57,611 nt of DNA from Bacillota bacterium. Lineage in GTDB: Bacteria > Bacillota > Sulfobacillia > UBA995 > UBA9673. The position numbers and the translations under genes were made by a program. Where the stretch lies: positions 1-57,611 of the forward strand of contig QZJP01000049.1 in NCBI GenBank assembly GCA_003599345.1, written 5' to 3'. This document shows positions 1 to 19,133 of the stretch, in pieces. The notes beneath the pieces are model-generated. The model saw only the letters and a list, made by a program, of their open reading frames with translations, did not search any database and was not told the DNA's origin. How positions within the stretch are numbered: the first letter of the stretch is position 1; every line of letters begins with the position of its first letter.

Positions 1-1
1 C

Positions 2-3000
2 GACCCGCACACCGGGACCATAACGCACAGCGCCACGGGCGGCGGCTATACGGGCGCCGCCATCGGCAGCGTCACGGCGTCCATCGCCGAGGACGACTTC
101 CCGGGAGTCTCGGTCGCCGAGAGCGACGGGTTCACCGCCGTCACCGAGGCGGCGCTGCCGGGGGCGGGGGAAACCGACACCTACACGGTGGTCCTCACCC
201 ACGTGCCTAACGGCGACGTGACCATCGCCGTGACCGCAGACTCCGACGTGCGCGTCGAAACGGTCGCCGGTGGAGGTCCGCAGGCGACGGCCTCGCTGAC
301 CTTCACGACGGCCGACTGGTCAACCCCTCAGACCATCACTGTCTATGCCTTCGACGACGACGAGGTGGAAGGGGCGCACGCCGGGAATATCACCCACTCC
401 GCCGCCGGCGGCGGCTACGACGGAGTGCCCATTGCCGGCGTGACGGTCGCGGTGACCGACAACGACGTCCCGGGAATAACCATCATTGAAAGCGACTCCT
501 CCACCATTGTGGGCGAGGGGGCCGGCGGAGCCACAGACACCTATGAGGTCAGGCTGGCGGCCAAGCCGTCGGGCACGGTCACCGTGACCGTCACCCCGGA
601 CTCCCAGGTGACCGTGGCCGCGGGAACGACGGGTCCGGGAAGTCCCGGGGTCTCAGCGGTGCTCACCTTCACCGTCGCCGACTGGAATGTCCCACAGACC
701 CTCACGGTCGGGGCGGCCGAGGACCTGGTGGTCGAGGGGGTCCATTCCGGCCTTCTCCAGCACTCGGCGGCGGGCGGCGGCTACGACGGGATTACCGCGG
801 ACCTCACCGTGACCGTCGGCGACGACGACTTGCCCGGGGTGACAGTAACGGAGACCGGCGGCTCGACGGCGGTCACGGAGGGCGTCACTTCCGGCGAGGG
901 GGCCGGCGACACCTATGACGTGGTTCTGAATCTCGAGCCTTGCGCGACGGTCACTATCACCGTGACGGCGTCGCCCGAGAATCAGGTGACCCTGAGTTCC
1001 GGGGGCGGAGTGCCGTCCCCGAGCCTGGCCCTGACCTTCACCCCACAGGACTGGAACGTCCCGCAGACCGTGACGGTGAGGGCGGTGGACGACGGTGTCG
1101 TCGAGGGTTCGTCGAGCCCGCAGGCCTCCGTCTCCCTGGCTCACGCGGCGAGCGGAGGGGGGTACGACGGCGCCGCCGTCGACGCTGTCTCGGTGGCCGT
1201 TACCGACAATGATCTCCCGCAGGTAGTCGTGGCGGAGTCGGGGAACTCGACCGCGGTCGACGAGGCTTCGACCGCCTACGACACCTACACGATCCACCTC
1301 GGGCGGGAACCCTTCGACGACGTCACCGTGACGGTAACCGTAGGTGACGGGCAGACTCTCGTGGAGGTCGAAGCGGGCGGGGCCGGCACGGGGGTCGGCT
1401 CGAGCGCCATCCTCGTCTTCACCCCGTCCGACTGGGACGTGGCCCAGACCATCCGCGTCCACCCGGTCAACGACGACGTGGTCGAAGGTCAGCACACGGG
1501 GTTGATTTCCCACGCGGCCACCGGCGGCGGCTATGACGGCTGCGCCATCGACGACGTCACGGTCGCCGTCGCCGACAACGACGCGGGCGGGGTGACCATC
1601 GTCGAATCGGAGGACCGCACCCAGGTTGCCGAGGGCGGCGCCGGGGGCCCGGCTCTAGATACCTACCAGGTGCTCTTGACCATGCAGCCATCCGGGGACG
1701 TGACCATCACGGCCGCGCCCTCCGCCGATCTCACCGTGGACAACGGCTCCGCCGGGAACACTCTCGTCTTCACGCCCGTGAACTGGAACCTGCCACAGAC
1801 CATCACCGTCGCCGCGGTGGATGACGGCGAGGCCGAGGGTCTCCACACCGGAACCGTCAGCCACACCGCCGCCGGCGGGGGCTACACGGGAGCTTCGGTG
1901 GGCACCGTGACGGTTTTCATAACGGACAACGACCCGGGCGTGGTGGTGACGGAAAGTGGTGGGGCGACGGCCGTCAGGGAGGGCGGTCTGACCGACACTT
2001 ACATCATTGCGCTGAGCACCCAGCCGGCCGGCACGGTCACGGTGACGGTGACGCCGGACGGCCAGTTGACCGTTGATTGCGGGACCGGCCCGGGGTCGCC
2101 GGGCGTCGCGGGCCAGGTGACCTTCACGACCTCCGACTGGAGCGACCCGCGCACCATCACCGTCGCCGCGGCCGACGACCTGACCGTCGAGGGCGTACAC
2201 GCCGGCGTGGTGACTCACTCGGCGTCAAGCGGCGACCCGGACTACGATGCAATAGCCGCCCCGCCCGTCAACGTCACCATCACCGACAACGACTCGGAGG
2301 CCCCGCCCTACGAGCCGCCTCCGCCCGCGCCGGAACCCGGACCGGAACCGGCGACGGGCGTCCGGGTGGTCGACCCGGCGCGGGATACGACCCTCCGGTT
2401 CGCGGAACTCGGTTTGACGATACACTTCCCGGCAGGATTCGTGGCGGTAGAGCCGGGGGACGAGATCCGGGTCTCCGCCAGGGCCGCGGGACCGCCCGAC
2501 CCAGTCACCCTGGAAGGCACGCACCGCACAGCCGGGGGCAACTTCGAGCTCACTGTCGTCCGCTACAGGGCCGGCACCACGACCTCCGTCTATGAGTTCG
2601 CGAGGACCGTCACGGCCGTCGTCGACCTTCGCGCGACGGCCCCGCGCGGGGTCGTCGCCGACAAGATCGGCCTTTACGTCTGGGAGGCCGGGTCGCTCGG
2701 CCCGCCCTCCTGGGTCTACGTCCACTCGGGTTACGACTCAGGCTCGGGCCGGCTCATTGCCAGACTCGCCCACGCCAGCCGCTTCGCGGCCCTGGTCGCC
2801 ACCCGCACGTTCGACGACATCCAGACCCACTGGGCCAGGCAGGAGATCGAGGTCCTGACAGGCAGGAAGGTCATCCAGGGAGTGGCGCCGTGGGCCTTCG
2901 CCCCCGGCGACCTGGTGACGCGGGCTCAATTCTGCGCCCTCTTGGTCCGGGCGCTCGGGCTGGAGGTGTCCACATCCGGGACGACCCCGTTCGCCGACGT

Positions 3001-3634
3001 CCCGGCCACGGCCTGGTATGCCCCCGAAGTGCGGACGGCGTGGGAGGCCGGCCTGGCCACGGGGTCGACGGGCGCGTCCTTCGCTCCCAACCGGGCGATA
3101 ACCAGGCAAGAGATCGCCGTCTTCCTATCGCGAGCTCTGGAGGTGACCGGGTTCGCGGTGAACCTCACGTCCGGCGACGTCGCGGAGCTACTCGCCCCGT
3201 TCTCCGACGCGGGCCTCGTCCCGGGATGGGCTCGGGGTCCCTTCGCGCAAGTGCTCGCGCAGGGCATCGTCCGGGGCCGCACCTCCACTACCCTGGCGCC
3301 GGGAGGCACCGCCACGCGCGCCGAGGCGGCCGTGATGCTCAAGCGGCTCATGGCCAGGACCATGGACGTCGCCGCCACGGCGACGGGTGTTCTCCAGGTG
3401 AGCGACGTCGGGGGCCGGCACTTCGAGTTGATCGTCGCCGGGCAGGTCGCCGGCGACAGGGTCCTCGGCGGGCAGGTCTACACCCTCCTGGTCGACCCGG
3501 GCAATACCGCCCTGCTGGCGGACCTGGAGGCCCGCGTCGGGGCCACCGTCACCCTCGCCGGCACCGTCCGTCCTGAGGCCATCACAATCTACCAGCGAGG
3601 GGTTCCGTTCGTGGTCTACGCCGTGATTGGTTGA
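2..3634 (+). CDS. Large S-layer-homology (SLH) anchored surface protein with tandem Calx-beta/cadherin-like repeats; 5'-truncated by the window edge
   Basis: Frame is open from position 2 (DPHTGTITHSATGGGY...). About six ~120-aa repeats (DTYxVxL..P...LTFTxxxWxxPQTxTVxAxDD..EGxH...GGGY...VTVxDND), a Pro-rich linker, three SLH motifs (FDDIQTHWA/TRAQF, FADVPATAWY/TRQEI, FSDAGLVPGWA/TRAEA) and a short C-terminal beta domain. Confidence 0.88.
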   Translation, partial: DPHTGTITHSATGGGYTGAAIGSVTASIAEDDFPGVSVAESDGFTAVTEAALPGAGETDTYTVVLTHVPNGDVTIAVTADSDVRVETVAGGGPQATASLTFTTADWSTPQTITVYAFDDDEVEGAHAGNITHSAAGGGYDGVPIAGVTVAVTDNDVPGITIIESDSSTIVGEGAGGATDTYEVRLAAKPSGTVTVTVTPDSQVTVAAGTTGPGSPGVSAVLTFTVADWNVPQTLTVGAAEDLVVEGVHSGLLQHSAAGGGYDGITADLTVTVGDDDLPGVTVTETGGSTAVTEGVTSGEGAGDTYDVVLNLEPCATVTITVTASPENQVTLSSGGGVPSPSLALTFTPQDWNVPQTVTVRAVDDGVVEGSSSPQASVSLAHAASGGGYDGAAVDAVSVAVTDNDLPQVVVAESGNSTAVDEASTAYDTYTIHLGREPFDDVTVTVTVGDGQTLVEVEAGGAGTGVGSSAILVFTPSDWDVAQTIRVHPVNDDVVEGQHTGLISHAATGGGYDGCAIDDVTVAVADNDAGGVTIVESEDRTQVAEGGAGGPALDTYQVLLTMQPSGDVTITAAPSADLTVDNGSAGNTLVFTPVNWNLPQTITVAAVDDGEAEGLHTGTVSHTAAGGGYTGASVGTVTVFITDNDPGVVVTESGGATAVREGGLTDTYIIALSTQPAGTVTVTVTPDGQLTVDCGTGPGSPGVAGQVTFTTSDWSDPRTITVAAADDLTVEGVHAGVVTHSASSGDPDYDAIAAPPVNVTITDNDSEAPPYEPPPPAPEPGPEPATGVRVVDPARDTTLRFAELGLTIHFPAGFVAVEPGDEIRVSARAAGPPDPVTLEGTHRTAGGNFELTVVRYRAGTTTSVYEFARTVTAVVDLRATAPRGVVADKIGLYVWEAGSLGPPSWVYVHSGYDSGSGRLIARLAHASRFAALVATRTFDDIQTHWARQEIEVLTGRKVIQGVAPWAFAPGDLVTRAQFCALLVRALGLEVSTSGTTPFADVPATAWYAPEVRTAWEAGLATGSTGASFAPNRAITRQEIAVFLSRALEVTGFAVNLTSGDVAELLAPFSDAGLVPGWARGPFAQVLAQGIVRGRTSTTLAPGGTATRAEAAVMLKRLMARTMDVAATATGVLQVSDVGGRHFELIVAGQVAGDRVLGGQVYTLLVDPGNTALLADLEARVGATVTLAGTVRPEAITIYQRGVPFVVYAVIG

Positions 3635-3744
3635 CGCGGTTCCTGTCGGACAGGGCGCCACCAGCCAGGAGGCGTGCGATTGGTGTCGAACCAGCGGCTA
3701 GCTGAGACCCTGGCCGCGACACCAGACCTGACTGGGGGGCTACA

Positions 3745-4743
3745 TTGGCAACGCGCGGGACCGCCGGTTTCTCGCCCTACATCCTGTTCACCCGTGCCGA
3801 GTGGGCCCGTTTGCGGGCCTCGACCCCGCTCACCCTGACCCTGGAGGACCTCGAGCGTCTTCGCGGCATCAACGAGCGTATCTCCCTGGACGAGGTAGCC
3901 GAGGTCTACCTGCCTCTTTCGCGCCTTCTCAACCTGCACGTCGTCGCCGCCCAGGAGCTCCGCCGCGTGACCGAGGTCTTCCTGGGGGAGCCCGCGACGC
4001 AGGCCGGAGCGGCGTCAGCGGAGACTATCGAGGGCGGGGCCATCCCCGGGACCGCGGCGAAAGTCCCCTACGTGATAGGCCTCGCCGGCAGCGTGGCCGT
4101 CGGGAAGAGCACGACCGCTCGCATCCTGCAGGCGCTCCTCTCGCGGTGGCCGGGCCATCGCCGCGTCGACCTAGTCACCACGGACGGGTTCCTCTTCCCG
4201 AACCGGGTTCTCGAGGAACGCGGCCTGATGGGTCGTAAAGGCTTCCCCGAGAGCTATGATATCCGGCGCTTCATCCGGTTCCTCGCCGAGTTGAAGTCCG
4301 GGGTGCCCGAGCTGCGGGTTCCCCTCTACTCGCACTTCACCTACGACATCCTCCCGGATGAGTTCCAGGTCCTGAGGCAGCCGGACATCGTCATCATCGA
4401 GGGGCTGAACGTGCTCCAGACCCCGCCCGGCGCGTCCGTCTTCGTCTCCGACTTCTTCGATTTCTCCATCTACGTGGACGCCGAGGAAGCCCACATCATC
4501 CGCTGGTACGTGGAGCGCTTCCTGACCTTCGTCGGGACGGCGTTCCGCGACCCTCGCTCCTACTTCCACCGCTACGCCAGCTTGTCAACAGCGGACGCCG
4601 TCATGGCGGCGGAGCGCATCTGGCGGGACATCAACTCCGTCAACTTGAGGGAGAACATCCTTCCCACGAGAGACCGGGCGCGGCTCATCCTCACCAAGGG
4701 TCCGGACCACAGCGTCAACGAGGTCAGGCTCCGGAGGATGTGA
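3745..4743 (+). CDS. coaA: Type I pantothenate kinase
   Basis: [23 protein letters not shown]-loop, [34 protein letters not shown] and [10 protein letters not shown] motifs. Confidence 0.96.
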
Positions 4744-4753
4744 TCTGCCCGAC

Positions 4754-5770
4754 CTACGCGCGGCGGCGCGACGGGTTGCGGCCGGCGACCGGTCCTCGCC
4801 CGGGTTCCCGCCCGCGTCGCCCGTTCCGCTCACGCTCGGCGCGGGGGAGGGTCAAGGCGAAAAGGCCGGCCGCGACGGCCCCTGAGCCAGTCGCCAGGAG
4901 ATGGCTTCTCACGCCGCTGAGCGCGGCGAGAGCAAGGGAACGCAGGGAGAGAGACTCCAGTTCGGGAACGGTCGCGGGGAGGTAGGACGCGGTCACGTCC
5001 ATGGCCAGGAGGCCGAGGGTTACCGATATCCCGATGACGGCAAGCCCTCCGGCCGCCCAAACCCCGCCCCCGGCCGCTACGCCCCGGGCCCCGCGCCCGC
5101 CGAACGTCCACAGGAGGATGGACAGCCCGAGACCGTAGATGCCGGCAACGACCGGCGCCATGGTCGCCGCCCGCCAGACAGGCCGCGCTCTGGCCAGGGT
5201 CGGCTCGTCCAGCGTGGCGCCGATATCGACGTAGTCGGGTAAGTCTTGAAGACCCCGGGCGGCGTTCAGGTAGAACTCCTCTCCCAGGTGACGCCGGATG
5301 GAGTCGAGCAGCACGACCTTGAGTTCAACCACGGGGATCTCTATGGAGAGGCAGTCGTCGTCCGAGCCGAGGTAGGCGACCACGCCGGTCAGGAAAGTTT
5401 CAAGCTGAATCTCGAGCCACCCGACGGGGATACCTTCCTCCAGGGCCAGGCGGAGCGCCCGGCGGCGGGTGTCGTCCAGGCCCGAGTTCGACACCAGGCT
5501 GTCGAGGAGCTCCGACTTGGCGGAGGCCAGGACCCCCGCCTGGCGGGCCACTTCGACGATGTAGACGGGGTTGGCCGCCGTAGCCCTGAGGCTTGTGCCC
5601 ACGCACAGCCCTACCACGCAGGGGAAGAGACCCAGGACGAAGACTATTGCCGCGAGTATCCGGGCGGCCGTGAGGACGAGCCGGCCCGAGCCCCGGTGAC
5701 GGGCGTTCCCGGAACGACCGCGACTCCGGTCGGAGAGGCGAGGCCCCCGGGCCTGGCGGGTACGCGACAA
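4754..5770 (-). CDS. Hypothetical integral membrane protein (N-terminal TM, soluble helical domain, about 3 C-terminal TMs)
   Basis: 338-aa ORF with AGGAAAGGAG RBS before TTG and hydrophobic segments. Confidence 0.7.
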   Translation of the reverse strand: MSRTRQARGPRLSDRSRGRSGNARHRGSGRLVLTAARILAAIVFVLGLFPCVVGLCVGTSLRATAANPVYIVEVARQAGVLASAKSELLDSLVSNSGLDDTRRRALRLALEEGIPVGWLEIQLETFLTGVVAYLGSDDDCLSIEIPVVELKVVLLDSIRRHLGEEFYLNAARGLQDLPDYVDIGATLDEPTLARARPVWRAATMAPVVAGIYGLGLSILLWTFGGRGARGVAAGGGVWAAGGLAVIGISVTLGLLAMDVTASYLPATVPELESLSLRSLALAALSGVRSHLLATGSGAVAAGLFALTLPRAERERNGRRGREPGRGPVAGRNPSRRRA

Positions 5771-5915
5771 GGGGCGGTCTCCTTTCCTCGGCCGCCCCTT
5801 AGGATACCCTGGCTAGAAAGTCCGACCCCGCGGACCACTCGCGCAACGTCCAGCCCCGCGGACAGCTGTTTGCGACCGCCGCATTTGCCCAGGCACTAGG
5901 CCACGGCGGCCAAGC

Positions 5916-6548
5916 TCACGCGCGCTTCGGCCCGAGAAGCGACGCGACCAGGACGTCCGCCGCGGACACCCCGATGCGCGCCAGCTCCTCCTCGTACTCC
6001 TGGTTCACCCGCCAGCGCCCTCCGGAGTAGATGACGGCGTCCCAGGGCTGGACGACCAGATCGTCCGTTTCGAGACCGACCCAGTCGGGAGTTATGCTGG
6101 AAGAGTGCCGGTAGAGCGTGGCCGTCTTCACTTCGGTCGCCCCTTGGGCCCAGCACTCGTCGACCGCAACCCGGAGAGTCTCACCGGTCCCCGCCATGTC
6201 ATCGACCACCAGAACACGGCGGCCCTTGACAACCTCCGACGGGATGCGGCCGATGAGAGCCGGGTGCCGCCGGGTCACGATGTCGTCCTGGCGGCGCGTG
6301 ATGCGTATGGGGAAGAAATCGCGCCGGAGCATCGAGGCGATGATGGCCCCGGGAATGGCGCCACCCTTGGCGATGCCCACGATGACCTCCGGGTGGAGGG
6401 TCTTCTCGACCTCCTCGGCCAGCCGGCGGCATATCCTACCGACGTCCTCCCAGTCGATGGCCAGGACGCCGGTGTGCTCGTGATCCATGGACTTCAGGTG
6501 CTTCTTCACGGGCCCCACCCCTATGGTCGAGGCATCTTCCGGCGACAC
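5916..6548 (-). CDS. Type I phosphoribosyltransferase (purine PRTase-like)
   Basis: IVGIAKGG, PRPP-binding VLVVDDMAGTGETL and C-terminal VVQPW motifs. Confidence 0.88.
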   Translation of the reverse strand: MSPEDASTIGVGPVKKHLKSMDHEHTGVLAIDWEDVGRICRRLAEEVEKTLHPEVIVGIAKGGAIPGAIIASMLRRDFFPIRITRRQDDIVTRRHPALIGRIPSEVVKGRRVLVVDDMAGTGETLRVAVDECWAQGATEVKTATLYRHSSSITPDWVGLETDDLVVQPWDAVIYSGGRWRVNQEYEEELARIGVSAADVLVASLLGPKRA

Positions 6549-6642
6549 GTGCAGGAATCGACCCTACCGCAGGGCGATTATAACACGTCGTGTTGGTCAC
6601 AATGCGCCTGCGAGGGAACAGAGGGGAGAGGGGGAAGCACCG

Positions 6643-7896
6643 GTGAGCGAGGTTTCCACCCCAGGTCAAACCGGGGGCGGCGGCCCGACCGTCGCCGAAC
6701 TGGCGGCCGTGCTGGACCGTATCGCCCCACCCGCGCTGGCCGAACCGTGGGACAACGTGGGGGTGCTGGTCGGGGACCCGGAGTCCCGGCCCCGATGGGT
6801 CGCCGTGACCCTGGACCCCGCGTTCGCGCTCATTCCGGCTGTGGGCCGAGCCCTGGGCCGGGCCGCGGATCCCAGCACCACAGGTCTTGTCCCCAATCCC
6901 GGTGGAGGACCTCTGCCGGAGGGCCACGGCCTGCTTGTCGCCCACCACCCCGTGCCGTGGAGGCCCCTCTCCCGGGTGCTGGCGACCGACCCGGCCGGCC
7001 AGGTCGTATCGGAGTGTCTCCGCCGGGGCATCTCCCTCTACGCGGCCCATACAAGTTTCGATTCGGCCCCTGGGGGCCTCTCGCACGTGCTGGCCTCGCT
7101 CGTGGGTATGGCGAGCGAGGGGCGGATGCCCATCGTACCGCGAGGCCGGCACCTCAAGCTTGTCGTTTTCGTGCCCCCCGACCAGAGCGCGGCCGTCAGG
7201 CAGGCTTTGGCCGGGGCCGGCGCCGGCTGGATAGGGAACTACAGCGACACGGCCTTCGCGTCCCCCGGCCGAGGCTACTTCCTGCCCCGTGAGGGAGCCG
7301 ATCCTTTCACCGGCTCACCCGGAGTGCTCGAGGAGACGGCCGAGGAACGGGTCGAGACCATCGTCCCGGCCCACCTCCTGGACGAGGCGGTGCGTCGGAT
7401 GCTGGAGGTCCATCCCTACGACGAAGTCGCCTACGACGTCTACCCGCTTGAGAGCCACCCGTCCGTGACCAGACCCGAGCTGCTCGCCGGGATAGGCCGG
7501 ATTGGGGATCTGCCCGGGGACGGCTTGCCCCTCGACGAGTTCACCCGGCACGTGGAGCGGGCTCTCGGGCTCGCCCCGGGCGAAGCAAGACTCCTTGGCG
7601 GCCCGGCGACCCGGACCGGTCTCGTGGGGCGCGTCGCCGTCTGCCCGGGAGCCGGTGGCGCCCACGTCCGGGCGGTCGCGGCGGCGGGCGCCCACGTCTA
7701 CGTCACCGGCGACGTGGGCTACCACGATGCGGTGGGGGCGGCCGGGCTCCGGCTGGCCGTCATCGACGCCGGCCACCTGGCGACCGAGAGGCCGTTCGTG
7801 GGAGTCATGGCCACCCTGCTCAGGAAAGAATTCAGAGCCCAAGGGATTCCACTGGACATCATCGAAGTTCCGACTCCGCCAGCCGGGCTGCGCTGA
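6643..7896 (+). CDS. Nif3-like dinuclear metal-centre protein (YqfO/YbgI type, with PII-like insertion)
   Basis: AEPWDNVG, AHHP, YAAHTSFD, KLVVFVP, GAGWIGNY, HPYDEVAYD, TGDVGYH and DAGHLATE motifs. GTG start at 6643 after a purine-rich RBS. Confidence 0.93.
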   Translation: MSEVSTPGQTGGGGPTVAELAAVLDRIAPPALAEPWDNVGVLVGDPESRPRWVAVTLDPAFALIPAVGRALGRAADPSTTGLVPNPGGGPLPEGHGLLVAHHPVPWRPLSRVLATDPAGQVVSECLRRGISLYAAHTSFDSAPGGLSHVLASLVGMASEGRMPIVPRGRHLKLVVFVPPDQSAAVRQALAGAGAGWIGNYSDTAFASPGRGYFLPREGADPFTGSPGVLEETAEERVETIVPAHLLDEAVRRMLEVHPYDEVAYDVYPLESHPSVTRPELLAGIGRIGDLPGDGLPLDEFTRHVERALGLAPGEARLLGGPATRTGLVGRVAVCPGAGGAHVRAVAAAGAHVYVTGDVGYHDAVGAAGLRLAVIDAGHLATERPFVGVMATLLRKEFRAQGIPLDIIEVPTPPAGLR

Positions 7897-7913
7897 AGGG
7901 GAAAGGGGACGCA

Positions 7914-8720
7914 ATGGACTCCGGATACATCCGTGCCGACTTCCGGAACCTTCTCGAGGTACAGGAATTGGACTCCGAGATTGCGAGGCGCCGGGCCGCC
8001 ATCGAGCATAGCCTCAACGACCCCGAGGTGACAAGGCTCCGGGAGCTTGTCAAGCGGGCCGCGGAGGCCGCGTCCGCCGCCAAGGAACGGGTCGCGACCC
8101 TGAAGCGGGCCATCTCGTGGGAAGAGAAGGAAGCCGACGGCATCCGCGAACAGATAACCTCCGCCGAGCGCAAGATGTATGGCGGCCATGTCGCCAACCC
8201 TAAGGAACTCGACCAGATGCAGAAGAAGGTTGAGCAGCAACGAAAGGACCTGGGCCGGCACGAAGAGGCCGCGCTCGAAGCGATGATGGAACTCGAGGAA
8301 GCCGCCCCGGAGCTCGACCAGGCCGATGCGACTCTGGCGCGGGCCGGCGAGGAGCTGGCGAAGGCCGAGGCCGAGAACAAGGCGACCGCGGCCACCCTCG
8401 AGGCCGAGATACGGGAGATAGAGCCGCGCCGCGCGGATGCGGCCGCCCGGGTTCCCGCGGGCCTCATGTCACGCTACGAGCAGATTCGCGACAGGAGGGG
8501 CGGCTTGGGCGTAGCCGCACTCACCCCTGACGGCTTGTGCGGGGCGTGCCTCATCAAGGTCCCCGCGATACTGGCCGAGACGGCCCGCAAGGGCGCTCTG
8601 GAGGTCTGCGAGAGCTGTGGGCGGCTCCTCGTGGGGCCCAAGCAGGCCCTCGACGCGGCCGGCCCCGGCGAGCCCGGCGGGCGGGACGCCACCACCGGCG
8701 GCGCCGGAGGCGGAGCGTGA
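7914..8720 (+). CDS. C4-type zinc-ribbon coiled-coil protein (DUF164 family)
   Basis: LLEVQELD start, long coiled coil, YEQIR, CGAC...CESCGRLL. Typical position after nif3. Confidence 0.92.
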   Translation: MDSGYIRADFRNLLEVQELDSEIARRRAAIEHSLNDPEVTRLRELVKRAAEAASAAKERVATLKRAISWEEKEADGIREQITSAERKMYGGHVANPKELDQMQKKVEQQRKDLGRHEEAALEAMMELEEAAPELDQADATLARAGEELAKAEAENKATAATLEAEIREIEPRRADAAARVPAGLMSRYEQIRDRRGGLGVAALTPDGLCGACLIKVPAILAETARKGALEVCESCGRLLVGPKQALDAAGPGEPGGRDATTGGAGGGA

Positions 8721-10444
8721 ACCCGGGGGAGGGTGCAGTCCTCACCTGCCACATCGACGGTGCGAGCCGGGGGAATCCAGGGCCGGCCGGCGCCGGAGTC
8801 GTCGTCTACGACGGGTCCGGTCGCGAGCGGCGAGCCGCCGGCATCTACCTCGGAGAGACCACGAACAATGTGGCTGAGTACCTGGCCCTGATAGAGGCCT
8901 TGCGGGCCGCGTCCGACATCTGCCGCGAGGACGGGCTCGAACGGGACCGGACCTCCGTCGTCATCCGGACGGACAGCCAGCTCGTGGCGAGGCAGGTGTC
9001 CGGCGAATACCGGGTCAAGAGCCAAGCTCTGGCGCCGCTGCTCGGCGACTTCCGCCGGGAGGCGGGGGGCTTCTACCGCGTGAGCGTTCTCCACGTGCCC
9101 CGCGAGCAGAACCGCCGGGCCGACGAGCTGGCCAACCAGGCCATCGACGACGCCTTCGGGCGGGGGAAGAGCGGGGCCAGCCCGCGGTATTCCCGGCTGA
9201 GCCACCTCGAGTGCTCCCGTTGCGAGCGGCGCCTGGACCCCGCCGAACCGCACGGCCCTTGCCCGGCCTGTGGCGCCCCGCTCCTCGCCCGCTACGACCT
9301 CGCCGGCCTCGTCTGGCCTCCCCGAGGGAACGACTGTAGCCTGGGTAACCCGGGGCAGTGCCCGGAACACAACTCCATGTGGCGCTACCACGAACTCCTA
9401 CCCGTCACCGCGCCGCAGTACGTGGTCAGCCTCGGCGAGGGTCTGACGCCCTTGGTGGCGATGGGCGGGCTCGAGCGGGAGTTGGGGCTAGGCCGGGTCC
9501 TGGTCAAGGACGACCGCCTCAACCCGACGGGGACTTTCAAGAGCCGAGGGGCTTCGGCCGCCGTCTCCCGGCTCGTCGAGCTGGGCATAGAGAAGTGCGC
9601 CATCCCCACCCAGGGCAACGCCGGTTCGGCCTTCGCCGCCTACTCGGCCCGGGCGGGCCTGAGATTCCTCACCGCCATGCCTGAGGACACCCCGGCTGCC
9701 ATCCGCGCCGAGTGCGAGGCCTACGGGGCCGAGGTCGTCACCGTGAAGGGACTCCTCCCCGACGCGGGGCGTTACGTGCGTGAGCGGGCGGCGGCCGAGG
9801 GCTGGTACGTGGCCTCCACCTTTGACGAACCCTACCGGGCCGAGGGCAAGAAGACGATCGCCCTGGAGCTTTTCGAGGCCTTTGGCTCCCGCTGGCCTGA
9901 CGCCATCGTTTTCCCCGTGGGGGGCGGGGTGGGTCTCGTCGGCGCCTGGAAGGCGGCCCAAGAGCTCGCGACGGCGGGTGTGGCCGGCGCGGCCGAGCCG
10001 CGTTCCGGCGCCACCGGCGCGGCTGGACCGGGTTCCGGCGCCTCGGGGACCACTGATGGGCGGCCCAGGCTACCCCGGCTGTTCGCCGTCCAGGCCGCGG
10101 GCTGCGCCCCGGTGGTCAAAGCCTATGGCGAGGGCCGCGACGAGACCGAGCCTTTCGCCAACGCCGAAACGGTGGCGGCCGGGCTCCGGGTGCCGTCGCC
10201 CAAAGCGGGGTTCCTCATCCTGCGGGCGTTGCGGGCCTCCGGCGGGGCGGCCGTCGCCGTGCCGGACGAAGTCATCCTCCGGACGGTGGTCAAACTCCGG
10301 CGCGAGGAGGGTCTCAACTTCTGCCCGGAGGGCGCCGCGGCCGTGGCCGCCCTGCCCGAATTGGCTCGCCGCGGCTGGCTCGACGGCTGCCGCGAGGTCG
10401 TGGTCGTCAGCACCGGCACGGGGTTGAAATACCCCTCGGGCTAG
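8717..10444 (+). CDS. Fusion protein: N-terminal ribonuclease HI plus C-terminal threonine-synthase-like PLP enzyme
   Basis: GTG start overlaps the upstream TGA. RNase HI motifs IDGASRGNPG, TNNVAEY, TDSQLV, HVPREQNRRADELA. Then CSRC/CPAC, SMWRY, LGEGLTPL, NPTGTFKSRG, GNAG, EGKKT, PVGGGVG, CPEGAA and TGTGLKY. Confidence 0.9.
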   Translation: MNPGEGAVLTCHIDGASRGNPGPAGAGVVVYDGSGRERRAAGIYLGETTNNVAEYLALIEALRAASDICREDGLERDRTSVVIRTDSQLVARQVSGEYRVKSQALAPLLGDFRREAGGFYRVSVLHVPREQNRRADELANQAIDDAFGRGKSGASPRYSRLSHLECSRCERRLDPAEPHGPCPACGAPLLARYDLAGLVWPPRGNDCSLGNPGQCPEHNSMWRYHELLPVTAPQYVVSLGEGLTPLVAMGGLERELGLGRVLVKDDRLNPTGTFKSRGASAAVSRLVELGIEKCAIPTQGNAGSAFAAYSARAGLRFLTAMPEDTPAAIRAECEAYGAEVVTVKGLLPDAGRYVRERAAAEGWYVASTFDEPYRAEGKKTIALELFEAFGSRWPDAIVFPVGGGVGLVGAWKAAQELATAGVAGAAEPRSGATGAAGPGSGASGTTDGRPRLPRLFAVQAAGCAPVVKAYGEGRDETEPFANAETVAAGLRVPSPKAGFLILRALRASGGAAVAVPDEVILRTVVKLRREEGLNFCPEGAAAVAALPELARRGWLDGCREVVVVSTGTGLKYPSG

Positions 10445-10507
10445 CACCCGACGCGGAACCGGCGGGAGCAATGGGCGTTGTCGCGCTAGTTTGGGCTCGC
10501 GCGCCGC

Positions 10508-10536
10508 TTAACCGTTGACGTCTAGACGTCTATAAT
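10508..10536 (+). promoter_or_regulatory. Perfect 14-bp palindrome GACGTCTAGACGTC abutting a TATAAT box (candidate operator/promoter)
   Basis: Palindrome at 10517-10530, TATAAT at 10531-10536, TTAACC 17 bp upstream of it. Confidence 0.45.
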
Positions 10537-10551
10537 GCCGCAAAGCGGTGT

Positions 10552-11266
10552 CCACCCCCGGCGTTCGACGGCCATCAGAGATCACCCCTGCCGCGCTTCA
10601 CGACGCCTAACCGACGAGCAGCACGAGCAACTCAAGACGTATTTCTTCGTGTGGGCGCGGCTGCTTTTGCCGAAGCTCGTGCCTGGGGCGAATGTCGTTG
10701 TCGCTTCGAACCCACTTCTTTCGTTCATTGTGGCAGGAGCGCTGGCTGAGGCTGGTCTCGAAAACCGAGGGACTATCGTAAGGCTGGTAATGACCATGCG
10801 CGGTGGGGACAGGCCCAGAGGGGCGCACACGGAGTTTGATAACGTTAGCGTAATGCCAAGGTCTATGTGGGAGCCATGGATAGTGTTCAAGAAACCGATT
10901 GAGGGGAGAGTGCAGGACAGCCTTCGTAAATGGAAGACCGGGGGCTTTCGTCGGCCGTCCGGTGAAAGGCCCTTTGGTGATGTCATACATTCTGCGCCCA
11001 CCCAAAAGAAAGAACGCACCGTTGCGCCTCATCCGAGCCTGAAGCCTCAGGCCTTCCTGAGGCAACTGGTCAGGGGTGTGCTTCCGCTGGGTGAGGGCCT
11101 AGTTCTTGACCCCTTTGCCGGAGCGGGCTCAACGCTCGCTGCGGCCGAAGCAGTTGGGTACAGAAGCATTGGAATTGAGAAAGACCGCCACTACTTTGAA
11201 ATCGCAAGGAACGCCATCCCTAAGCTGACCAGGTTAGCCGCAAATGGAGAGGTTCAAAGCCGGTAA
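10552..11266 (+). pseudogene. Truncated, frameshifted amino-(N4C/N6A) DNA methyltransferase, beta class
   Basis: HPSLKP, SAM-binding VLDPFAGAGSTLAAA and GIEKD are present, but the catalytic DPPY motif is absent. The upstream segment PPAFDGHQRSPLPRFTT is in another frame, joined at about 10606. GC content is visibly lower than the flanks. Confidence 0.8.
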
Positions 11267-11613
11267 ACCCAATTCTGGCGTAGCTTATTGGCCCAGGGTC
11301 CCTGCAAGCCCTCCCCTGACGCTGGTATTGTCGCAAGCCAGCCGCCACCCTGCTAACCCCTCTGGCTTGCGGTAACGAACCACATTAAGTGGGAGGTGGA
11401 TCGTCGCGCTACAAGAGCCGGTAGCTGGGTACTCAACCGGCGTCGAACCAATGCTTCGCCTCGTAGGGCCAACCAGCCGTTCTCGCGTCCCCCCGAGGCG
11501 CACTCCCGCGCGGGCTCAGAGGGGCCTAAGAACGCCGGCGGGCGCCCGGCGCTCCGGCTGCGGTCTTGGCGGGATTAGTCTTCTTTCGATCCGGCGACCA
11601 GTCTTCCTCGGCT

Positions 11614-12825
11614 TCACGCCACTTGCCGCTTGATTAGCCGGCTGGCCAGTAGGGTGAAGAGAACCAGGAACCCGCCCAGAACGGCCAGTTCCTTGCCCAC
11701 GCTTCCCAGGCTCCAGCCGCGGACCATGACGGCCCGCAGGCCGTCGTTGGCGTAGGTCATCGGCATGGCGTAGGCCAGCCAGCGAAGCGGTTCCCACATC
11801 GTGTCGATCGGCGTCAGGAGTCCCGAGAGCATTGCCTGCGGCAGGACCACGACGGGGATGAACTGGATGACCTGCAGCTCGTTGCGGGCGTAGAAGGAGA
11901 AGAAAATCCCCATCACCACGGCCACCGCCACCAGGGCCGCCTCAACCGTGAAAGCGGCCCCGAGGCTTCCCGCCAGCTTCACCCCCAGGGCGTAGACGCT
12001 GAAGAGCAGGATGACCAGCGACTGTGCCAGCGCGAAGATGCCGAACCCAAGGAGATAGCCGACAACGATCTCGCCCCGTTGCACAGGCGAGGCCAACAGG
12101 CGCTCCATCGTGCCCGACGACCGCTCCCGCAGGAACGACACGCTGGTCAACAGGAAGGTCAGGAAGAAGGCGATGAAGGCTACGAGGCTCGGGGCGAAGT
12201 AGCTGAGGGTCCCCAGTTCCGGGCCGCCGTAGGTGAACTCCACTGCGGGCGCCCGCGGCGTGGTCGGCGGGGCGGGGACATTCACGCCGGGCGGGACGAC
12301 GCGCTCGTGCTCCTGGGCCAGCTTCTCGGGTAAGGACTGGAGCGCCTGGGCGTAGCGGCGGGAGATGTCCCCGGCGAGCATCGCGTCGCTGCCTTCCACG
12401 ATGAGGCGCAGGTCGCCGAATCCCCTTCCGGCGAGGATGCCCGACGTGAAGTCGGGGGGGATGACCACGCCACCGTAGAGCTTGCCGTCGCGGACATCCG
12501 CCAGCATGTCCTCGGCCGAGGCGTAGCTTCTGAGCTCCAGCGACCGGTCGGTGAGGGCCGTCTCCAGGAGCGAGCCCGCTTCGATATCGAGGGTTAGTGG
12601 CCCGGCGCTCAATGTCGCGCCCTGGTCGAAGTCGACCAGGCCTACGCTCACGGGGGTCGTCTTCTCGGCGATGACGTAGCCGACCAGAGTCAGGATGATG
12701 ATCGGCGCGATGAAAAGAAGCGCGATGGTCCGCGGGTCGCGCCGGAACTGGGTGATGATACGCCGGGCAATGGCCCCGGTCCTAGTGAACGACTCACGCA
12801 CGGCCTTGGTCTCCCTTCCGCGCAT
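11614..12825 (-). CDS. ABC-2 type exporter permease
   Basis: QFRRDPRT, LRERSSGTMERLLASP, PQAMLSG and MPMTYA motifs; multiple TMs. Confidence 0.92.
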   Translation of the reverse strand: MRGRETKAVRESFTRTGAIARRIITQFRRDPRTIALLFIAPIIILTLVGYVIAEKTTPVSVGLVDFDQGATLSAGPLTLDIEAGSLLETALTDRSLELRSYASAEDMLADVRDGKLYGGVVIPPDFTSGILAGRGFGDLRLIVEGSDAMLAGDISRRYAQALQSLPEKLAQEHERVVPPGVNVPAPPTTPRAPAVEFTYGGPELGTLSYFAPSLVAFIAFFLTFLLTSVSFLRERSSGTMERLLASPVQRGEIVVGYLLGFGIFALAQSLVILLFSVYALGVKLAGSLGAAFTVEAALVAVAVVMGIFFSFYARNELQVIQFIPVVVLPQAMLSGLLTPIDTMWEPLRWLAYAMPMTYANDGLRAVMVRGWSLGSVGKELAVLGGFLVLFTLLASRLIKRQVA

Positions 12826-13573
12826 ACCAGAGGTAAGCTTCTTCGAGCGACCCGGTCCCCGTCTGTTCCTTGAGCTCCCGCGGGCTGCCCTCGGCCAGGA
12901 GGCGCCCCGCGCGCATGAACGCGACCCGGGTGCACCGCTCGGCCTCGTCCATGACGTGAGTGGAGATAACGAACGTCCGCCCCTCCCGGTTGAGCCGGTC
13001 GAAGTGGTCCCAGAGCCCCAGGCGGAGCTCCGGGTCGACTCCTACGGAAGGTTCGTCGAGGAGCATAAGCTCCGGCTTGTGGACGAGGGCGGCGGCCAGG
13101 CTGGCCCGCTGTCGCATGCCGCCGCTCAGGGTCCTCACGGGGCTCGAGCCGCGGTCGGCCAGACCGACCAGGGTGAGGACTTCCTCGACCCGGTCGGCAA
13201 CGTCGCGGGCGCCGAACAGGCGGGCGAAGAACCGGAGGTTCTCACGCACGGTCAGGTCCTCGTAGAGGGCGGCGGCCTGGGTCATGTAGCCGACGCGGCG
13301 CGAGACGAAGGGTGAGGGGACCTTCTCCCCCAGCACCTCAATCTGGCCGTGGTCCGGCTGCACCAGCCCCACCATGCTCCGGATGAGTGTGGTCTTACCC
13401 GAGCCGTTCGGGCCGAGGAGCCCGTATTTCTCGCCCCGTTTCACACTAAGGCTGAGGCCATCGAGGGCACGGGTGCGCCCGAAAACCTTGACGAGGTCGC
13501 GGGTGTTGACGACGGTCTCGTCTCCCGCGCCGGCGACGGCTCGTGGGGCCCTTGCCTCATTAGTGCGTCTCAT
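12794..13573 (-). CDS. ABC exporter ATP-binding protein
   Basis: GPNGSGKTT, LSGGMRQR, LLDEP and STH motifs. Confidence 0.95.
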   Translation of the reverse strand: MRRTNEARAPRAVAGAGDETVVNTRDLVKVFGRTRALDGLSLSVKRGEKYGLLGPNGSGKTTLIRSMVGLVQPDHGQIEVLGEKVPSPFVSRRVGYMTQAAALYEDLTVRENLRFFARLFGARDVADRVEEVLTLVGLADRGSSPVRTLSGGMRQRASLAAALVHKPELMLLDEPSVGVDPELRLGLWDHFDRLNREGRTFVISTHVMDEAERCTRVAFMRAGRLLAEGSPRELKEQTGTGSLEEAYLWYARKGDQGRA

Positions 13574-14223
13574 ACCCCGTCTCCCCTTTCTAATGCTCCG
13601 TAGAGGAAGGCTTCACAGGCACGGTCAAGAGCTTCCTCGGGGTCCCCTTCGCTCTCGAAAGTCACGCCCTGACCGGCCACGAACTGGGGCAGCCCGACGA
13701 AGCGCTCCCTGAGCAGGACCACGAAGACGGTGGCCATCATGGACATGACGAACGCCCCCGGACTCATCCAGGATCTGAGCGGCAGCCGCGAGAGCAGGCG
13801 GGCCATTGACTGGGCGGGGGCCGCTCCGAGTCTTTGGATATGTTCGGCCAGTTGGACCCGGAGGTTGGCCCCGCCAAACTCGCGGACATCTATGAGAATA
13901 AGGTAGTAGGAAGGAAGCCTGTCCTTCACGGTGTGATAGACGGTGCCCATGAGGTGCCTGACCGCCCGCGCGGGAGGGTCGTCCAGGGGAGGGGGGTCTC
14001 TTTCGATGGCCTCGGCCACCGCGGTGACGGGGGAGTGGGCGGTCAGGACGGCCCTAAAGAGGTTTTCCTTCGACCCGAAGTGGTAGTAGACCGAGGCCAC
14101 GTTGCAGGAGCAGGTGTCCGCGAGGCGGCGGATGCTGGTGCCGCGGTAGCCTAGATCCGTAAACAGCCTATACGCGGAATGAAGGAGAACGGTCTTGAGG
14201 TCAGTGGTGTTGAGATCGGTCAC
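13570..14223 (-). CDS. TetR/AcrR family transcriptional regulator
   Basis: HTH LFTDLGYRGTSIRRLA...SVYYHFGSKENLF. GTG start chosen from the GGAGGG RBS. Confidence 0.92.
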   Translation of the reverse strand: MTDLNTTDLKTVLLHSAYRLFTDLGYRGTSIRRLADTCSCNVASVYYHFGSKENLFRAVLTAHSPVTAVAEAIERDPPPLDDPPARAVRHLMGTVYHTVKDRLPSYYLILIDVREFGGANLRVQLAEHIQRLGAAPAQSMARLLSRLPLRSWMSPGAFVMSMMATVFVVLLRERFVGLPQFVAGQGVTFESEGDPEEALDRACEAFLYGALERGDGV

Positions 14224-14288
14224 CGCCGGCGCTCCCTCCAGGGTCGGCAGACGCCGCAACAGGCAGGGTCGAAGTCGCTACCCCCACA

Positions 14289-14317
14289 ATTCTAATTAAA
14301 CGCTTGTTTAAAGTCAA
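14289..14317 (-). promoter_or_regulatory. SigA promoter of the tetR-ABC operon with an inverted-repeat operator in the spacer
   Basis: Minus strand TTGACT-17 bp-TAGAAT. The spacer contains TTAAAC-N4-GTTTAA. Confidence 0.75.
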
Positions 14318-14359
14318 ACCCTACCGGCTCACGCCACGTGCGGGGGCGGTCCGTCGTGG

Positions 14360-15139
14360 TCAGGCGCAGCGTAGCGGCCGCCGGCCGTAGGCCACCAGCC
14401 TGGAGACGCACACGAAAGACTGGGGGTTCTTGAGGAGTTCCTGGACGGCGCGACCGTAGCGGGCCGCTTCCTCGGGGGTCGCGGCGTTCTCGTCCACTAA
14501 GTCCCGTACGACCTTCGAAAGTTCAGCCAGCCAGCCCGCGGGGTCCCGGGTCTGTGACCACTCCGGGTCAGTGCTGTTCGCCGTGCTGACCACGACCCTG
14601 ACCCCTTCCAATCCGGCGCCGAACAGGAGCCGGAACAGAGAGCGCCCTGCCGCCTTACTGCCTCCCATCGCCAGGCGCCTCCTGGCGAGGAGCGCCCGCA
14701 GCTCGGCGAGGGCGTGCGGCTCGGGGTCATAGACCGCCAGACCTTCATCGTCGTCGGCGACGGCGACGATGCCGCCGGGACTGGCGACCCTGACCATCTC
14801 CTTCACGACCTCTTCGGGTGCGTCGATGCGACCGAGAACCTGACGGGCGACGCACGCGTGCGCGAGGTCCGGCGCCAGGCGGGATCGGCACAGGCTGCCG
14901 ACCTCGAACGTGAGGTTCTCCAGCCCTTCCTGGGAGGCCAGTTCTCTCGCCCTTGTGATCGCGAAGGCCGAAGTATCCACCCCGATGACCCGGCCCTCGG
15001 GGCCCACGAATCGGGACAGGAGGCGGGCGAACTCGCCCACCCCGCATCCCCATTCGACAACAGTAGCCCTCCGTCCGAGTCCGGCTTCGACTAGGACACG
15101 GAGGTCAACCTGTTGGGCCCAGGTGTTCGCGGTCACCAT
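14360..15139 (-). CDS. Class I SAM-dependent methyltransferase
   Basis: VVEWGCGVG, VIGVD and EMVRVASPGG motifs. ATG at 15139 after GAGGA; the longer ORF-track start overlaps marR. Confidence 0.85.
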   Translation of the reverse strand: MVTANTWAQQVDLRVLVEAGLGRRATVVEWGCGVGEFARLLSRFVGPEGRVIGVDTSAFAITRARELASQEGLENLTFEVGSLCRSRLAPDLAHACVARQVLGRIDAPEEVVKEMVRVASPGGIVAVADDDEGLAVYDPEPHALAELRALLARRRLAMGGSKAAGRSLFRLLFGAGLEGVRVVVSTANSTDPEWSQTRDPAGWLAELSKVVRDLVDENAATPEEAARYGRAVQELLKNPQSFVCVSRLVAYGRRPLRCA

Positions 15140-15231
15140 AGAGTCAGAACATTCCTCTTCCGGGCCGAATTCCCTTGCCGCGCGCGGTTGCGGGCGGCAG
15201 GGCATCCGGGACCGCTCGGCTCCTGCCGCTC

Positions 15232-15261
15232 TTGACAATTGATTTGCGTCACCAATATATT
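15232..15261 (+). promoter_or_regulatory. Candidate SigA promoter for the marR-ABC operon
   Basis: TTGACA (15232-15237), 18 bp spacer, TATATT, in an AT-rich patch just before the marR ATG. Confidence 0.55.
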
Positions 15262-15268
15262 TAGTGCC

Positions 15269-15778
15269 ATGCAAAGTAAAGACGTGGACAATGAACGCCT
15301 GGACCTCAAGCTTGTTGAAGCCTTTCACGGGCTCTTTCAGGCTCTTCACGCCAGGCGGACCGATGAGTGGTCTCCCGGGAAGCTGACCATGCCCCAGTTC
15401 AAGGTGCTCATGCTCCTGTCGGGGCCGAGATGCCCGGCGGGGTCCGCTCCCGCGGGTGACCTCACCATCGGCAGACTCGCCAGGCACTTGGGGCTGTCCG
15501 CTCCCACCGTCACCGGCATCGTCGACCGCCTGGCCGCCGCGGGTCTCGTCACCCGTTCGCGGCGCCGGGATGACCGGCGCGTCGTAGAAGTGGCCGCGAC
15601 AGCCGGCGGGAGGGAGCTTATCAGTGGCCTCCTGGCTGGTCGAGAGGAGCGCCTGCGGCGTTTCTTCGCCCGTCTTCCTGAGGACGATGCTCGTTGCCTC
15701 CTCAAGGGGCTGGACGCCCTGCGCAAGGCCATCGAGAGCGACGAGGGAGGAAGGGTTGAGAGCGATGAACGCAGCTGA
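15269..15778 (+). CDS. MarR family transcriptional regulator
   Basis: LTMPQFKVL, LARHLGLSAPTVTGIVDRL and DDRRVV...TAGG winged-helix motifs. Confidence 0.92.
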   Translation: MQSKDVDNERLDLKLVEAFHGLFQALHARRTDEWSPGKLTMPQFKVLMLLSGPRCPAGSAPAGDLTIGRLARHLGLSAPTVTGIVDRLAAAGLVTRSRRRDDRRVVEVAATAGGRELISGLLAGREERLRRFFARLPEDDARCLLKGLDALRKAIESDEGGRVESDERS

Positions 15779-16832: not shown

Positions 16833-17647
16833 GTACAGCCGCTAGACCGGTTGTCAAGAGAGGCTCGACCGTGATGTCCCGGACGTTTCTTGTCGACACG
16901 TGGTGGGTCGCCTGGCGAGAGATGAAGCACTTCGTGGGGGAGCGCGTACGCGTCATCATGATCCTCGTCCAACCGTTCATCTGGCTCGTCCTCATGGGGA
17001 ACCTGTTCCAAAGGATGGCCATGCTCCCGGGCTTCCCGGCCAGGAGCTATCTCGACTACATGGCGCCCGGCGTCGTCACCATGGTCACGCTCTTCGGAGG
17101 TATCTTCGGCGGAATGACTATCGTCTGGGACCGCCGGCTGGGATACCTCAACAAACTCCTGGCGGCGCCGATAGCCCGGTCGGCCGTGGTCAGCGGCAAG
17201 ATGCTGGCTATAGGTATCCAGACCTCGGTGCAGGCGGCTATCATCTTCGGCATAGCCATGTTCATGGGCGTCACGTTCAAGACGGGAGTCCTGGGCGCGG
17301 TTATGGTCATTGCTCTGGCGGCCATTCTGAGCACGGTGTTCGCCGGCATCTCCCTATCGTTCGGCGCCGTGATAACATCCCATGAAGCCCTCATGGCCGT
17401 CATGAACTTCTTCACGATGCCGCTCATGTTCACGTCGAACGCGATGATGCCGCTTTCATTCATGCCGGGTTGGCTTCAAACGTTGGCAAAGATAAACCCG
17501 TTGAGCTACGCGATAAACCCGATGCGCTCGTTGTTCTTGACGGGCTGGCGGCCCGGGGAACTCATTCAAGGAGTGATCATCCTGAGTCTCGTCAGCCTGG
17601 CGCTGGGCGTCCTGGCGACTCGCCTTTTCAAGCGGTCGCTCGCCTGA
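16829..17647 (+). CDS. DrrB-like ABC-2 exporter permease
   Basis: YLDYMAPG, DRRLGYLNKLLAAP and MPGWLQTLAKINPLSYA motifs; about 6 TMs. Confidence 0.92.
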   Translation: MSTAARPVVKRGSTVMSRTFLVDTWWVAWREMKHFVGERVRVIMILVQPFIWLVLMGNLFQRMAMLPGFPARSYLDYMAPGVVTMVTLFGGIFGGMTIVWDRRLGYLNKLLAAPIARSAVVSGKMLAIGIQTSVQAAIIFGIAMFMGVTFKTGVLGAVMVIALAAILSTVFAGISLSFGAVITSHEALMAVMNFFTMPLMFTSNAMMPLSFMPGWLQTLAKINPLSYAINPMRSLFLTGWRPGELIQGVIILSLVSLALGVLATRLFKRSLA

Positions 17648-19113: not shown

Positions 19114-19133
19114 GTCTCACGACTCCCGGGTCC

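Follow-up and report, generated by a model that had tools for sequence, protein, structure and literature searches.

An in-frame fusion of RNase HI with a threonine synthase-like PLP enzyme in one family of uncultured Bacillota-labelled bacteria

The locus and its fusion gene

The window analysed here is a stretch of 57,611 nucleotides (contig QZJP01000049.1 of assembly GCA_003599345.1) from the genome, designated G000, of an uncultured groundwater bacterium labelled Bacillota. Near its beginning it contains a conserved cluster of genes for a NIF3 protein, a zinc-ribbon protein and a type-1 ribonuclease H (RNase HI), and the last of these genes runs on without interruption into a domain resembling threonine synthase (ThrC), a pyridoxal phosphate (PLP) enzyme. 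An initial annotation, made from the letters alone, had described the fusion as in-frame and placed it in the NIF3 / zinc-ribbon operon; assembled reads and the genomes of relatives agree with it. The features of the cluster are the following, with the model confidence given as predicted local distance difference test (pLDDT).

6487..7896, strand +: NIF3/DUF34 gene, first of the conserved cluster (Pfam DUF34_NIF3 6e-52; TIGR00486 120.8 bits); its true start may lie downstream of 6487
7914..8720, strand +: CT398-like coiled-coil / zinc-ribbon protein (Pfam CT398_CC 1.7e-16)
8706-8710, strand +: Shine-Dalgarno-like GGAGG, read from the sequence, six bases before the GTG start codon 8717-8719
8717..10444, strand +: fusion gene
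8741..9157, strand +: RNase HI domain, residues ~9-147, with D14, E54, D86 and D136 (Pfam RVT_3, RNase_H)
9152..9190, strand +: inter-domain linker, residues 146-158 (variable in homologs, low pLDDT)
9191..9316, strand +: N-terminal zinc ribbon of the ThrC-like part, C166/C169/C182/C185 (Cys invariant in 18/18 fused proteins; weak DUF7129 match)
9425..10417, strand +: fold-type II PLP domain, K275 codon at 9539-9541 (Pfam PALP, Foldseek)
9986..10060, strand +: low-complexity insertion, residues ~424-448 (alignment of fused homologs, pLDDT)

As annotated initially, 8717..10444(+) is a stop-free open reading frame (ORF) of 575 codons plus stop, encoding 575 amino acids. An alternative reading from GTG 8537 would give 635 amino acids. 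The start at GTG 8717 is favoured because of the GGAGG in front of it, its overlap with the TGA of the upstream zinc-ribbon gene (GTGA) and the N-termini of 17 homologs that align there. In the AlphaFold2 model, calculated from an alignment of 18 fused proteins, both domains are folded confidently (mean pLDDT 85.2, predicted template modelling score 0.69). Low confidence is confined to the linker, the loop 204-214 and the insertion 430-447; pLDDT falls below 50 at residues 149-155 and 430-447. Among the 18 homologs the linker spans 11-48 residues rich in Gly, Pro, Ala and Ser. Its mean pairwise identity is 0.26, while the RNase H domain reaches 0.65, the ribbon 0.63 and the PLP core 0.72. Of the 17 other fused homologs, 16 lack the insertion at residues ~424-448, and P0011 has a shorter one, a few residues long, at the same alignment columns.

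Since G000 is a high-GC draft genome assembled from a metagenome (101 contigs, 82% completeness), one could suspect that the fusion is an artefact of assembly or gene calling and that the true state is two adjacent genes. The probability of this is negligible, as it is already contradicted by independent contigs that cross the junction. In runs X1 and X2, Logan contigs extend over 8600-10500, including the junction region 9150-9200 that the initial annotation wanted checked, with four substitutions and no gaps, and contigs of run X4 span 8600-9991. All four runs belong to one groundwater study, which is possibly the source of the window's sample; no RNA run is among the runs listed as containing the stretch. 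The in-frame architecture recurs in each of the family's four other genomes and, from several sources, in about 19 more protein clusters. In a protein search 19 of the 21 closest clusters (P0002-P0022, 59-88% identity) contain both domains; of the other two, P0010 is without the PF00075 call but otherwise complete in this respect, and P0018 (344 aa) shows PALP alone. The synteny within the family was looked at in G001 and G002. In G001 a zinc-ribbon gene, the fusion and the same ABC-2 gene as in the window follow each other, and in G002 a NIF3 gene lies upstream of the fusion. The CT398-like gene precedes the fusion in G001 and a standalone RNase H in G010. The fusion is a real in-frame gene and not an assembly error.

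Fused proteins are already deposited in public databases under the name “threonine synthase”; one of them, so called by NCBI, stems from a metagenome-assembled genome of Firmicutes/Bacillota. A full-text search of the literature found no paper on a fusion between RNase H and threonine synthase, in line with the initial annotation, which knew of no description.

Some further elements of the window may be mentioned here. Downstream of the fusion a 243-aa ORF (10535-11266, strand +) matches only the C-terminal third of the N6_N4_Mtase profile (positions 134-220) and may encode a truncated or divergent methyltransferase. A promoter-like site lies ahead of it at 10508-10536, and in G001 this ORF is missing between the fusion and the ABC-2 gene. 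A bacterial RNase P RNA of class A is located at 17887-18299 on the forward strand (285.7 bits). It was the only match in an Rfam scan of positions 1-20000, and no riboswitch was detected near the fusion gene in that region.

The two halves and their probable reactions

The N-terminal half matches Pfam RVT_3 (7.7e-16, 58.6 bits, cut-off 21.6, residues 13-142) and RNase_H (5.4e-12, 46.5 bits, cut-off 25.8). Among solved structures it is closest to 3u3g/4h8k (1e-27), the haloarchaeal RNase HI 4e19 and 3hst, the N-terminal domain of Rv2228c (7.7e-19). The four acidic positions that had been pointed out initially are present and conserved in the fused homologs. They align to the acidic site of 3u3g, while 4h8k has N where the window's protein has D86. 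All 18 aligned fused proteins have E54 and D86, D14 is kept in each of the 17 rows that cover its position (P0010 is truncated at the N-terminus) and D136 in 17 of 18. By its sequence this half would be a metal-dependent type-1 RNase H, cleaving the RNA strand in RNA:DNA hybrids. PF13456 and PF00075 each match only the fusion copy in G000, which has one RNase HII besides. As the sole type-1 RNase H found in this genome, the N-terminal half is probably the working one of the cell.

A domain of this kind could also have ceased to be a nuclease and act as an N-terminal module with a structural or regulatory role for the PLP enzyme. This is highly improbable, although the domain occurs fused to many enzymes and one homolog (P0012) carries D136H and has no HVPRE motif. 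It conflicts with the conservation of the acidic residues just described, with the fact that no other type-1 RNase H was found in G000 and with the degree of conservation of the RNase H domain, which is about that of the PLP domain. As regards P0012 itself, the change is located at columns ~140-150 of alignment A1 and its PLP domain is intact, so that its nuclease half may be decaying.

The C-terminal half contains a complete PLP domain with both CxxC pairs and the PTGTFK lysine, as was claimed at the outset. Pfam PALP covers residues 237-567 (1.8e-66) and a weak match to the zinc ribbon DUF7129 residues 162-188. The NCBI model NF006050 (PRK08197, “threonine synthase”) is matched with 454.8 bits (cut-off 303) in two stretches separated by the insertion, and with 459.1 bits in the genome scan, where neighbouring stretches are included. 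This match begins at model position 3 and includes the zinc ribbon. Neither the equivalog model for thrC (TIGR00260, 133.7 bits, cut-off 167.1) nor that for cysteate synthase (TIGR03844, 70.4 bits, cut-off 324.9) is passed. Foldseek finds solved threonine synthases as best structural matches, with TM scores (normalized to the target) of 0.78-0.83. C166/C169/C182/C185, K275 in PTGTFK, R277, N301, R374 and G402-404 are invariant in the 18 fused proteins. From the sequence one would expect a PLP-dependent reaction, elimination or replacement, whose substrate is an amino acid with a leaving group in beta or gamma position. The nominal reaction would be the conversion of O-phosphohomoserine to threonine, with an uncertain true substrate.

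By their NF006050 scores the ThrC-like genes of 41 relative genomes fall into three kinds. The short canonical ThrC reaches ~185-225 bits (positions ~58-388) and adjoins homoserine dehydrogenase (hom) in eight genomes (G011, G027, G028, G029, G035, G036, G037, G039). The second kind (~305-330 bits) is represented by a gene on contig C49 of G000, and the PRK08197 type proper, including the window's domain, scores 420-640 bits. In a tree of 122 rows the PRK08197 type forms a clade of 108 rows with support 100, apart from the two other kinds. This clade occurs in 21 of the 41 genomes, if a partial copy at a contig end of G004 (216 bits) is counted, and hom was found in 13 of these 21 and not found in eight. 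Five of five named genomes (Paenibacillus, Alicyclobacillus, Amycolatopsis, Winogradskya, Vitiosangium) possess a member of the clade together with other ThrC-like genes. Three of them were rechecked: in each another gene passes TIGR00260, and in two the PRK08197-type copy stays below its cut-off.

As to a separate thrC, for which the initial annotation suggested a check, G000 has the ThrC-like C49 gene (G000:C49:8691-10025(+), equal to L001:1237-2571), which passes TIGR00260 with 220-221 bits and reaches 308 bits on NF006050. Judged by eye from the translations, it is surrounded by genes for an aminotransferase, amidohydrolases, M20 peptidases, a carbamoyltransferase and a dihydropyrimidinase-like protein.

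Typical motifs of the PRK08197 clade are FK(A/S)RG, PT(A/Q)GNAG, T(L/F)xEPYR and GGGxG. In Thermus ThrC we take K61, T88, N154, S155, R160 and N188 to be the ligands of the substrate phosphate. K61 and R160 are kept in the window's domain as K275 and R374, whereas the other four are replaced (T88 by A302, N154 by T368, S155 by F369, N188 by G403), and these replacements (A, T, F/L and G) hold across all 108 rows of the clade. The loss of four of the six residues goes against the initial proposal of a phosphate-releasing partner.

Genes that could supply O-phosphohomoserine are scarce in this lineage. PF00742 (homoserine dehydrogenase) has no match in G000, which is 82% complete, and among the ten genomes of the order (G000-G009, seven of them at least 90% complete) hom was found in one, on a 2.4-kb contig of G003. 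In G000 thrB was not found (TIGR00191 only 22 bits; its two GHMP kinases resemble IspE and a heptose kinase), and HomK (TIGR02535) exceeds its cut-off in none of the ten genomes. The gene asd is present in nine of the ten. This suggests an order without the homoserine branch and auxotrophic for threonine and methionine. Within the family, hom and a canonical short thrC were each found once, on two small contigs, G003:C130 (2357 bases) and G003:C139 (1137 bases), which may represent contamination of the bin; the short ThrC groups with an Alicyclobacillus sequence (support 97).

That the PLP domain is nevertheless the working threonine synthase of the organism, fed with O-phosphohomoserine by unrecognised enzymes or by hom and thrB genes that were not assembled, has a smaller but appreciable probability. 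The model passed by the domain is an NCBI “equivalog” named threonine synthase, the best solved relatives by sequence and fold are threonine synthases, and the distribution of asd means that aspartate semialdehyde is available. According to GapMind 2026 (PMC13759103), thrB is missing from 8% of prototrophs. Against this stand the single hom among ten genomes of the order, seven of which are at least 90% complete, and the TIGR00260 score below the cut-off. In addition, 13 of the 21 genomes of the class that contain the clade also have hom, four of the eight genomes with a hom-adjacent short ThrC (G029, G035, G037, G039) contain the clade as well, and in all five named genomes it occurs beside other ThrC-like genes. 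Moreover, the Thermus residues N154, S155, N188 and T88 correspond to T, L/F, G and A here.

As no supply of O-phosphohomoserine is visible, the nominal threonine synthase reaction is doubtful. The clade separate from hom-linked ThrC (the outcome of the PALP phylogeny that had been asked for), the score below the TIGR00260 cut-off and the single hom among ten genomes support the view that the PLP half is a ThrC paralog and not the housekeeping, hom-linked ThrC. This means that the initial suggestion of a ThrC paralog linked to nucleic-acid or nucleotide metabolism stands in its first part, while nothing supports the link. The “threonine synthases” recognised by NF006050/PRK08197 can be considered as a widespread paralog clade whose annotated function is doubtful where the homoserine pathway is absent, and this bears on automated predictions of auxotrophy in uncultured Bacillota.

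Origin of the fusion and relation of its domains

The 18 fused PLP domains form one clade both in the FastTree reconstruction of 122 rows (support 100) and in the IQ-TREE reconstruction of 50 rows (Shimodaira–Hasegawa-like approximate likelihood ratio test, SH-aLRT, 100). Standalone genes from the sister family (G005 and G007; FastTree 95, IQ-TREE SH-aLRT 81) branch next to it as its sister group, and the other 90 members of the PRK08197 clade in the tree are all standalone. Thus the fusion is derived and goes back to a single event. It would have arisen once in the ancestor of one family, when a ThrC-like gene became the downstream neighbour of rnh, with which the NIF3 / zinc-ribbon / rnh operon ends, and the intervening stop disappeared; since then it would have been inherited vertically. 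The fused proteins retain the active-site signature of the clade.

In six genomes (G005, G007, G021, G024, G034, G037) a molybdopterin oxidoreductase of ~666 aa, whose best NCBIfam match (Fdh-alpha, 269 bits) is far under the cut-off, immediately precedes the standalone gene. The respective loci are listed here.

L036:6317-9522, strand -: molybdopterin oxidoreductase and standalone PRK08197-type gene
L013, L014, L016, L024, L026: the same gene pair
L017: further locus with the standalone PRK08197-type gene

In G035 the standalone gene follows TatC and a MobA-like gene. No close homolog of this molybdopterin oxidoreductase was found in G000. Outside the class the PLP clade has no conserved neighbours, as any given neighbour is common to at most five of 80 loci.

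The RNase H domain is a frequent fusion partner of unrelated enzymes. Among the best 120 of 1272 matches to longer proteins with this domain, 88 carry one of 17 partner families (42-59% identity in the RNase H domain) and 32 show no second Pfam domain. The architectures comprise NIF3 (22), PALP (19, all in the window's lineage), a class A beta-lactamase-like domain (9), PTPS/QueD (7), PurN-type formyltransferase (7), His_Phos_1 of the Rv2228c type (6), PF01894 (5), 4HBT thioesterase (3) and acyl-CoA dehydrogenase (2). IMPDH, HAD, GNAT, a tyrosine-phosphatase-like set, FMN reductase, IspF, SAP and CT398_CC were found once each. Some of these names are what we take the Pfam accession numbers to denote. 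Matches of this search are the public metagenome proteins P0121-P0221, in which at least 17 Pfam partner families are joined to the RVT_3-type RNase H domain. Most of the partners in the best 120 are unrelated to phosphate release. This breadth speaks against the idea of the initial annotation that the locus had acquired a different phosphate-releasing partner, and it favours the capture of whatever gene adjoined rnh.

Two further fusions were observed within the class. One of 517 aa in G032:C69 (L040:2991-4541(-)) joins RNase H with PhzF (PhzC-PhzF 4.5e-59, and RVT_3). The other, of 886 aa in G028:C1 (L041:3379-6039(+)), contains NIF3 at residues 367-723 and RNase H at residues 752-876; it lies downstream of dnaG and sigA, and its N-terminal ~360 residues match no family.

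On these grounds we consider the protein, with a probability of roughly 0.7, as two independent enzymes joined by a fusion at the end of an operon, with a single, vertically inherited origin. The two domains would be held together by a disordered and variable linker and would work independently, sharing nothing but their expression, by analogy with what is reported for RnhC, the actinobacterial fusion of RNase H with a CobC-type phosphatase. Independence is suggested by the low-complexity linker of 11-48 residues, by the 17 partner families and by the abstracts on RnhC, according to which its domains are dissociated in function. The frequent and unrelated partners in general favour drift or capture at the operon end over a specific biochemical coupling. 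A predicted complex of the RNase H domain with the PLP part (score 0.00, mark 0.32) is evidence neither way.

Several observations sit uneasily with this reading. The fused clade has a long stem (0.52 in the FastTree tree, 0.77 in the IQ-TREE tree), and in all fused proteins the patch 381-399, G406A, W422V and positions 497-498 are changed, which are conserved in the standalone relatives. The changed patch could be a new interface or reflect a functional shift that accompanied the fusion. The recurrent fusion of RNase H to enzymes could have a shared selective reason and not be due to drift. Finally, a canonical source of O-phosphohomoserine is missing (hom in one of ten genomes, no thrB in G000, no HomK in the ten), and G000 is just 82% complete.

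A coupled fusion has to be weighed in this context. Here the PLP domain would replace the CobC-type phosphatase and release phosphate or cooperate in a nucleic-acid or nucleotide pathway, or one domain would regulate the other. The resemblance of the locus to the actinobacterial RNase H / phosphatase locus, the match of the N-terminal half to NF005567 and the surface patch altered on the long stem agree with it, and according to the abstract of PMC7466739 the CobC domain had an influence on the RNase activity of Rv2228c in vitro. We regard such coupling as unlikely, given the very diverse partners among the best 120, mostly unrelated to phosphate release, and the disordered linker of variable length. 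The phosphate ligands, in the residue list that we assumed above, are largely replaced in the PLP clade, and the abstracts on RnhC report dissociated functions in vivo.

Quite improbable, too, is a third possibility, in which the RVT_3-type RNase HI is a general-purpose module that has repeatedly been welded to small-molecule enzymes for a selected reason. Possible reasons are the tethering of enzymes to RNA:DNA hybrids or to the replication-transcription zone, or a control of assembly. The passenger in the window would then be an uncharacterised ThrC paralog that, given its remodelled leaving-group pocket and the lack of a visible O-phosphohomoserine supply, catalyses a reaction different from threonine synthesis, and the patch 381-399, 406, 422, 497-498 would be a new interface between the domains or within an oligomer. 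Whatever the reason for its repeated recruitment, this RNase H domain with its unrelated enzyme partners offers many natural constructs for testing.

Comparison with known systems

To our knowledge bifunctional RNase HI fusions were known from a single case, the actinobacterial RNase H / CobC-type phosphatase, the logic of which is debated. The fusion described here is a second conserved bifunctional RNase HI architecture at the same locus. It has in common with Rv2228c and MSMEG_4305 (RnhC) the type of the N-terminal RNase HI, in keeping with the initial comparison (NF005567, 121.9 bits, model positions 6-139), and a variable linker followed by a C-terminal small-molecule enzyme. The full-length NF005567 architecture is not reached, with 121.9 bits against a cut-off of 326 and only positions 6-139 of 378 covered, and Pfam detects no His_Phos_1 in the fusion protein. 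In contrast with RnhC, the C-terminal partner is a zinc ribbon plus a fold-type II PLP enzyme instead of a histidine-phosphatase domain, and the fusion is found in one family of an uncultured, Bacillota-labelled class instead of in Actinomycetes. According to the initial annotation the Rv2228c locus also has NIF3 and a zinc-ribbon gene upstream. The domains of RnhC/MSMEG_4305 are described in the abstracts as functionally dissociated in vivo, and their authors regard the architecture as “fixed ... due to genetic drift” (PMC7466739; bioRxiv 10.1101/2022.11.09.515703).

With the canonical short ThrC (Aquifex 2zsj, Thermus 1uim/1v7c, Bacillus subtilis 6cgq, Mycobacterium tuberculosis 2d1f) the PLP half shares the fold, 29-35% identity over the Foldseek alignments, the lysine that binds PLP (in xFKxRG), the motif EG(K/Q)KT and an arginine corresponding to R160. 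It differs by an additional N-terminal four-cysteine zinc ribbon, by its motifs FK(A/S)RG, PT(A/Q)GNAG, T(L/F)xEPYR and GGGxG in place of FKDRG, ASTGNTS, NSxNPYR and GNAGN, by its separate clade, by the lack of an adjoining hom and by the score under the TIGR00260 cut-off.

Paralogs of ThrC with altered function are represented by MetM of Streptomyces, a MetO-thiocarboxylate-dependent homocysteine synthase, and by the ThrC of Microcystis aeruginosa, which has been called “moonlighting”. PMC13759103 describes MetM as a ThrC homolog making homocysteine from O-phosphohomoserine, and PMC12172450 gives 51.6% identity between the Microcystis ThrC and MetM. Similar to the window's clade, these are long members of the ThrC family with an extra N-terminal segment that coexist with canonical ThrC. 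The Microcystis ortholog was retrieved via a primer printed in PMC12172450 (the first primer gave no matches, the second 13). Its identity is 31% with the window's PLP domain, 41% with the C49 paralog and 65% with a protein of G028. The FKDR and ASTGN motifs are retained in it and CxxC pairs are absent, unlike in the window's domain. Sixteen loci of the window's PLP clade yielded no S-adenosylmethionine (SAM) riboswitch. An identity of this clade with the MetM/Microcystis clade is rejected on the strength of the ortholog's 31% identity and of these 16 loci. Because the Microcystis ortholog is nearer to other ThrC-like genes, the window's clade is distinct and apparently uncharacterised.

Finally, the fusion belongs together with the NIF3-RNase H, RNase H-PhzF and RNase H-QueD/PTPS proteins, all of which contain the same RNase H domain, and the partners NIF3 and CT398 are themselves genes of this locus. 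The partners differ between these fusions, and among the best 120 a PALP partner occurs in the window's lineage only.

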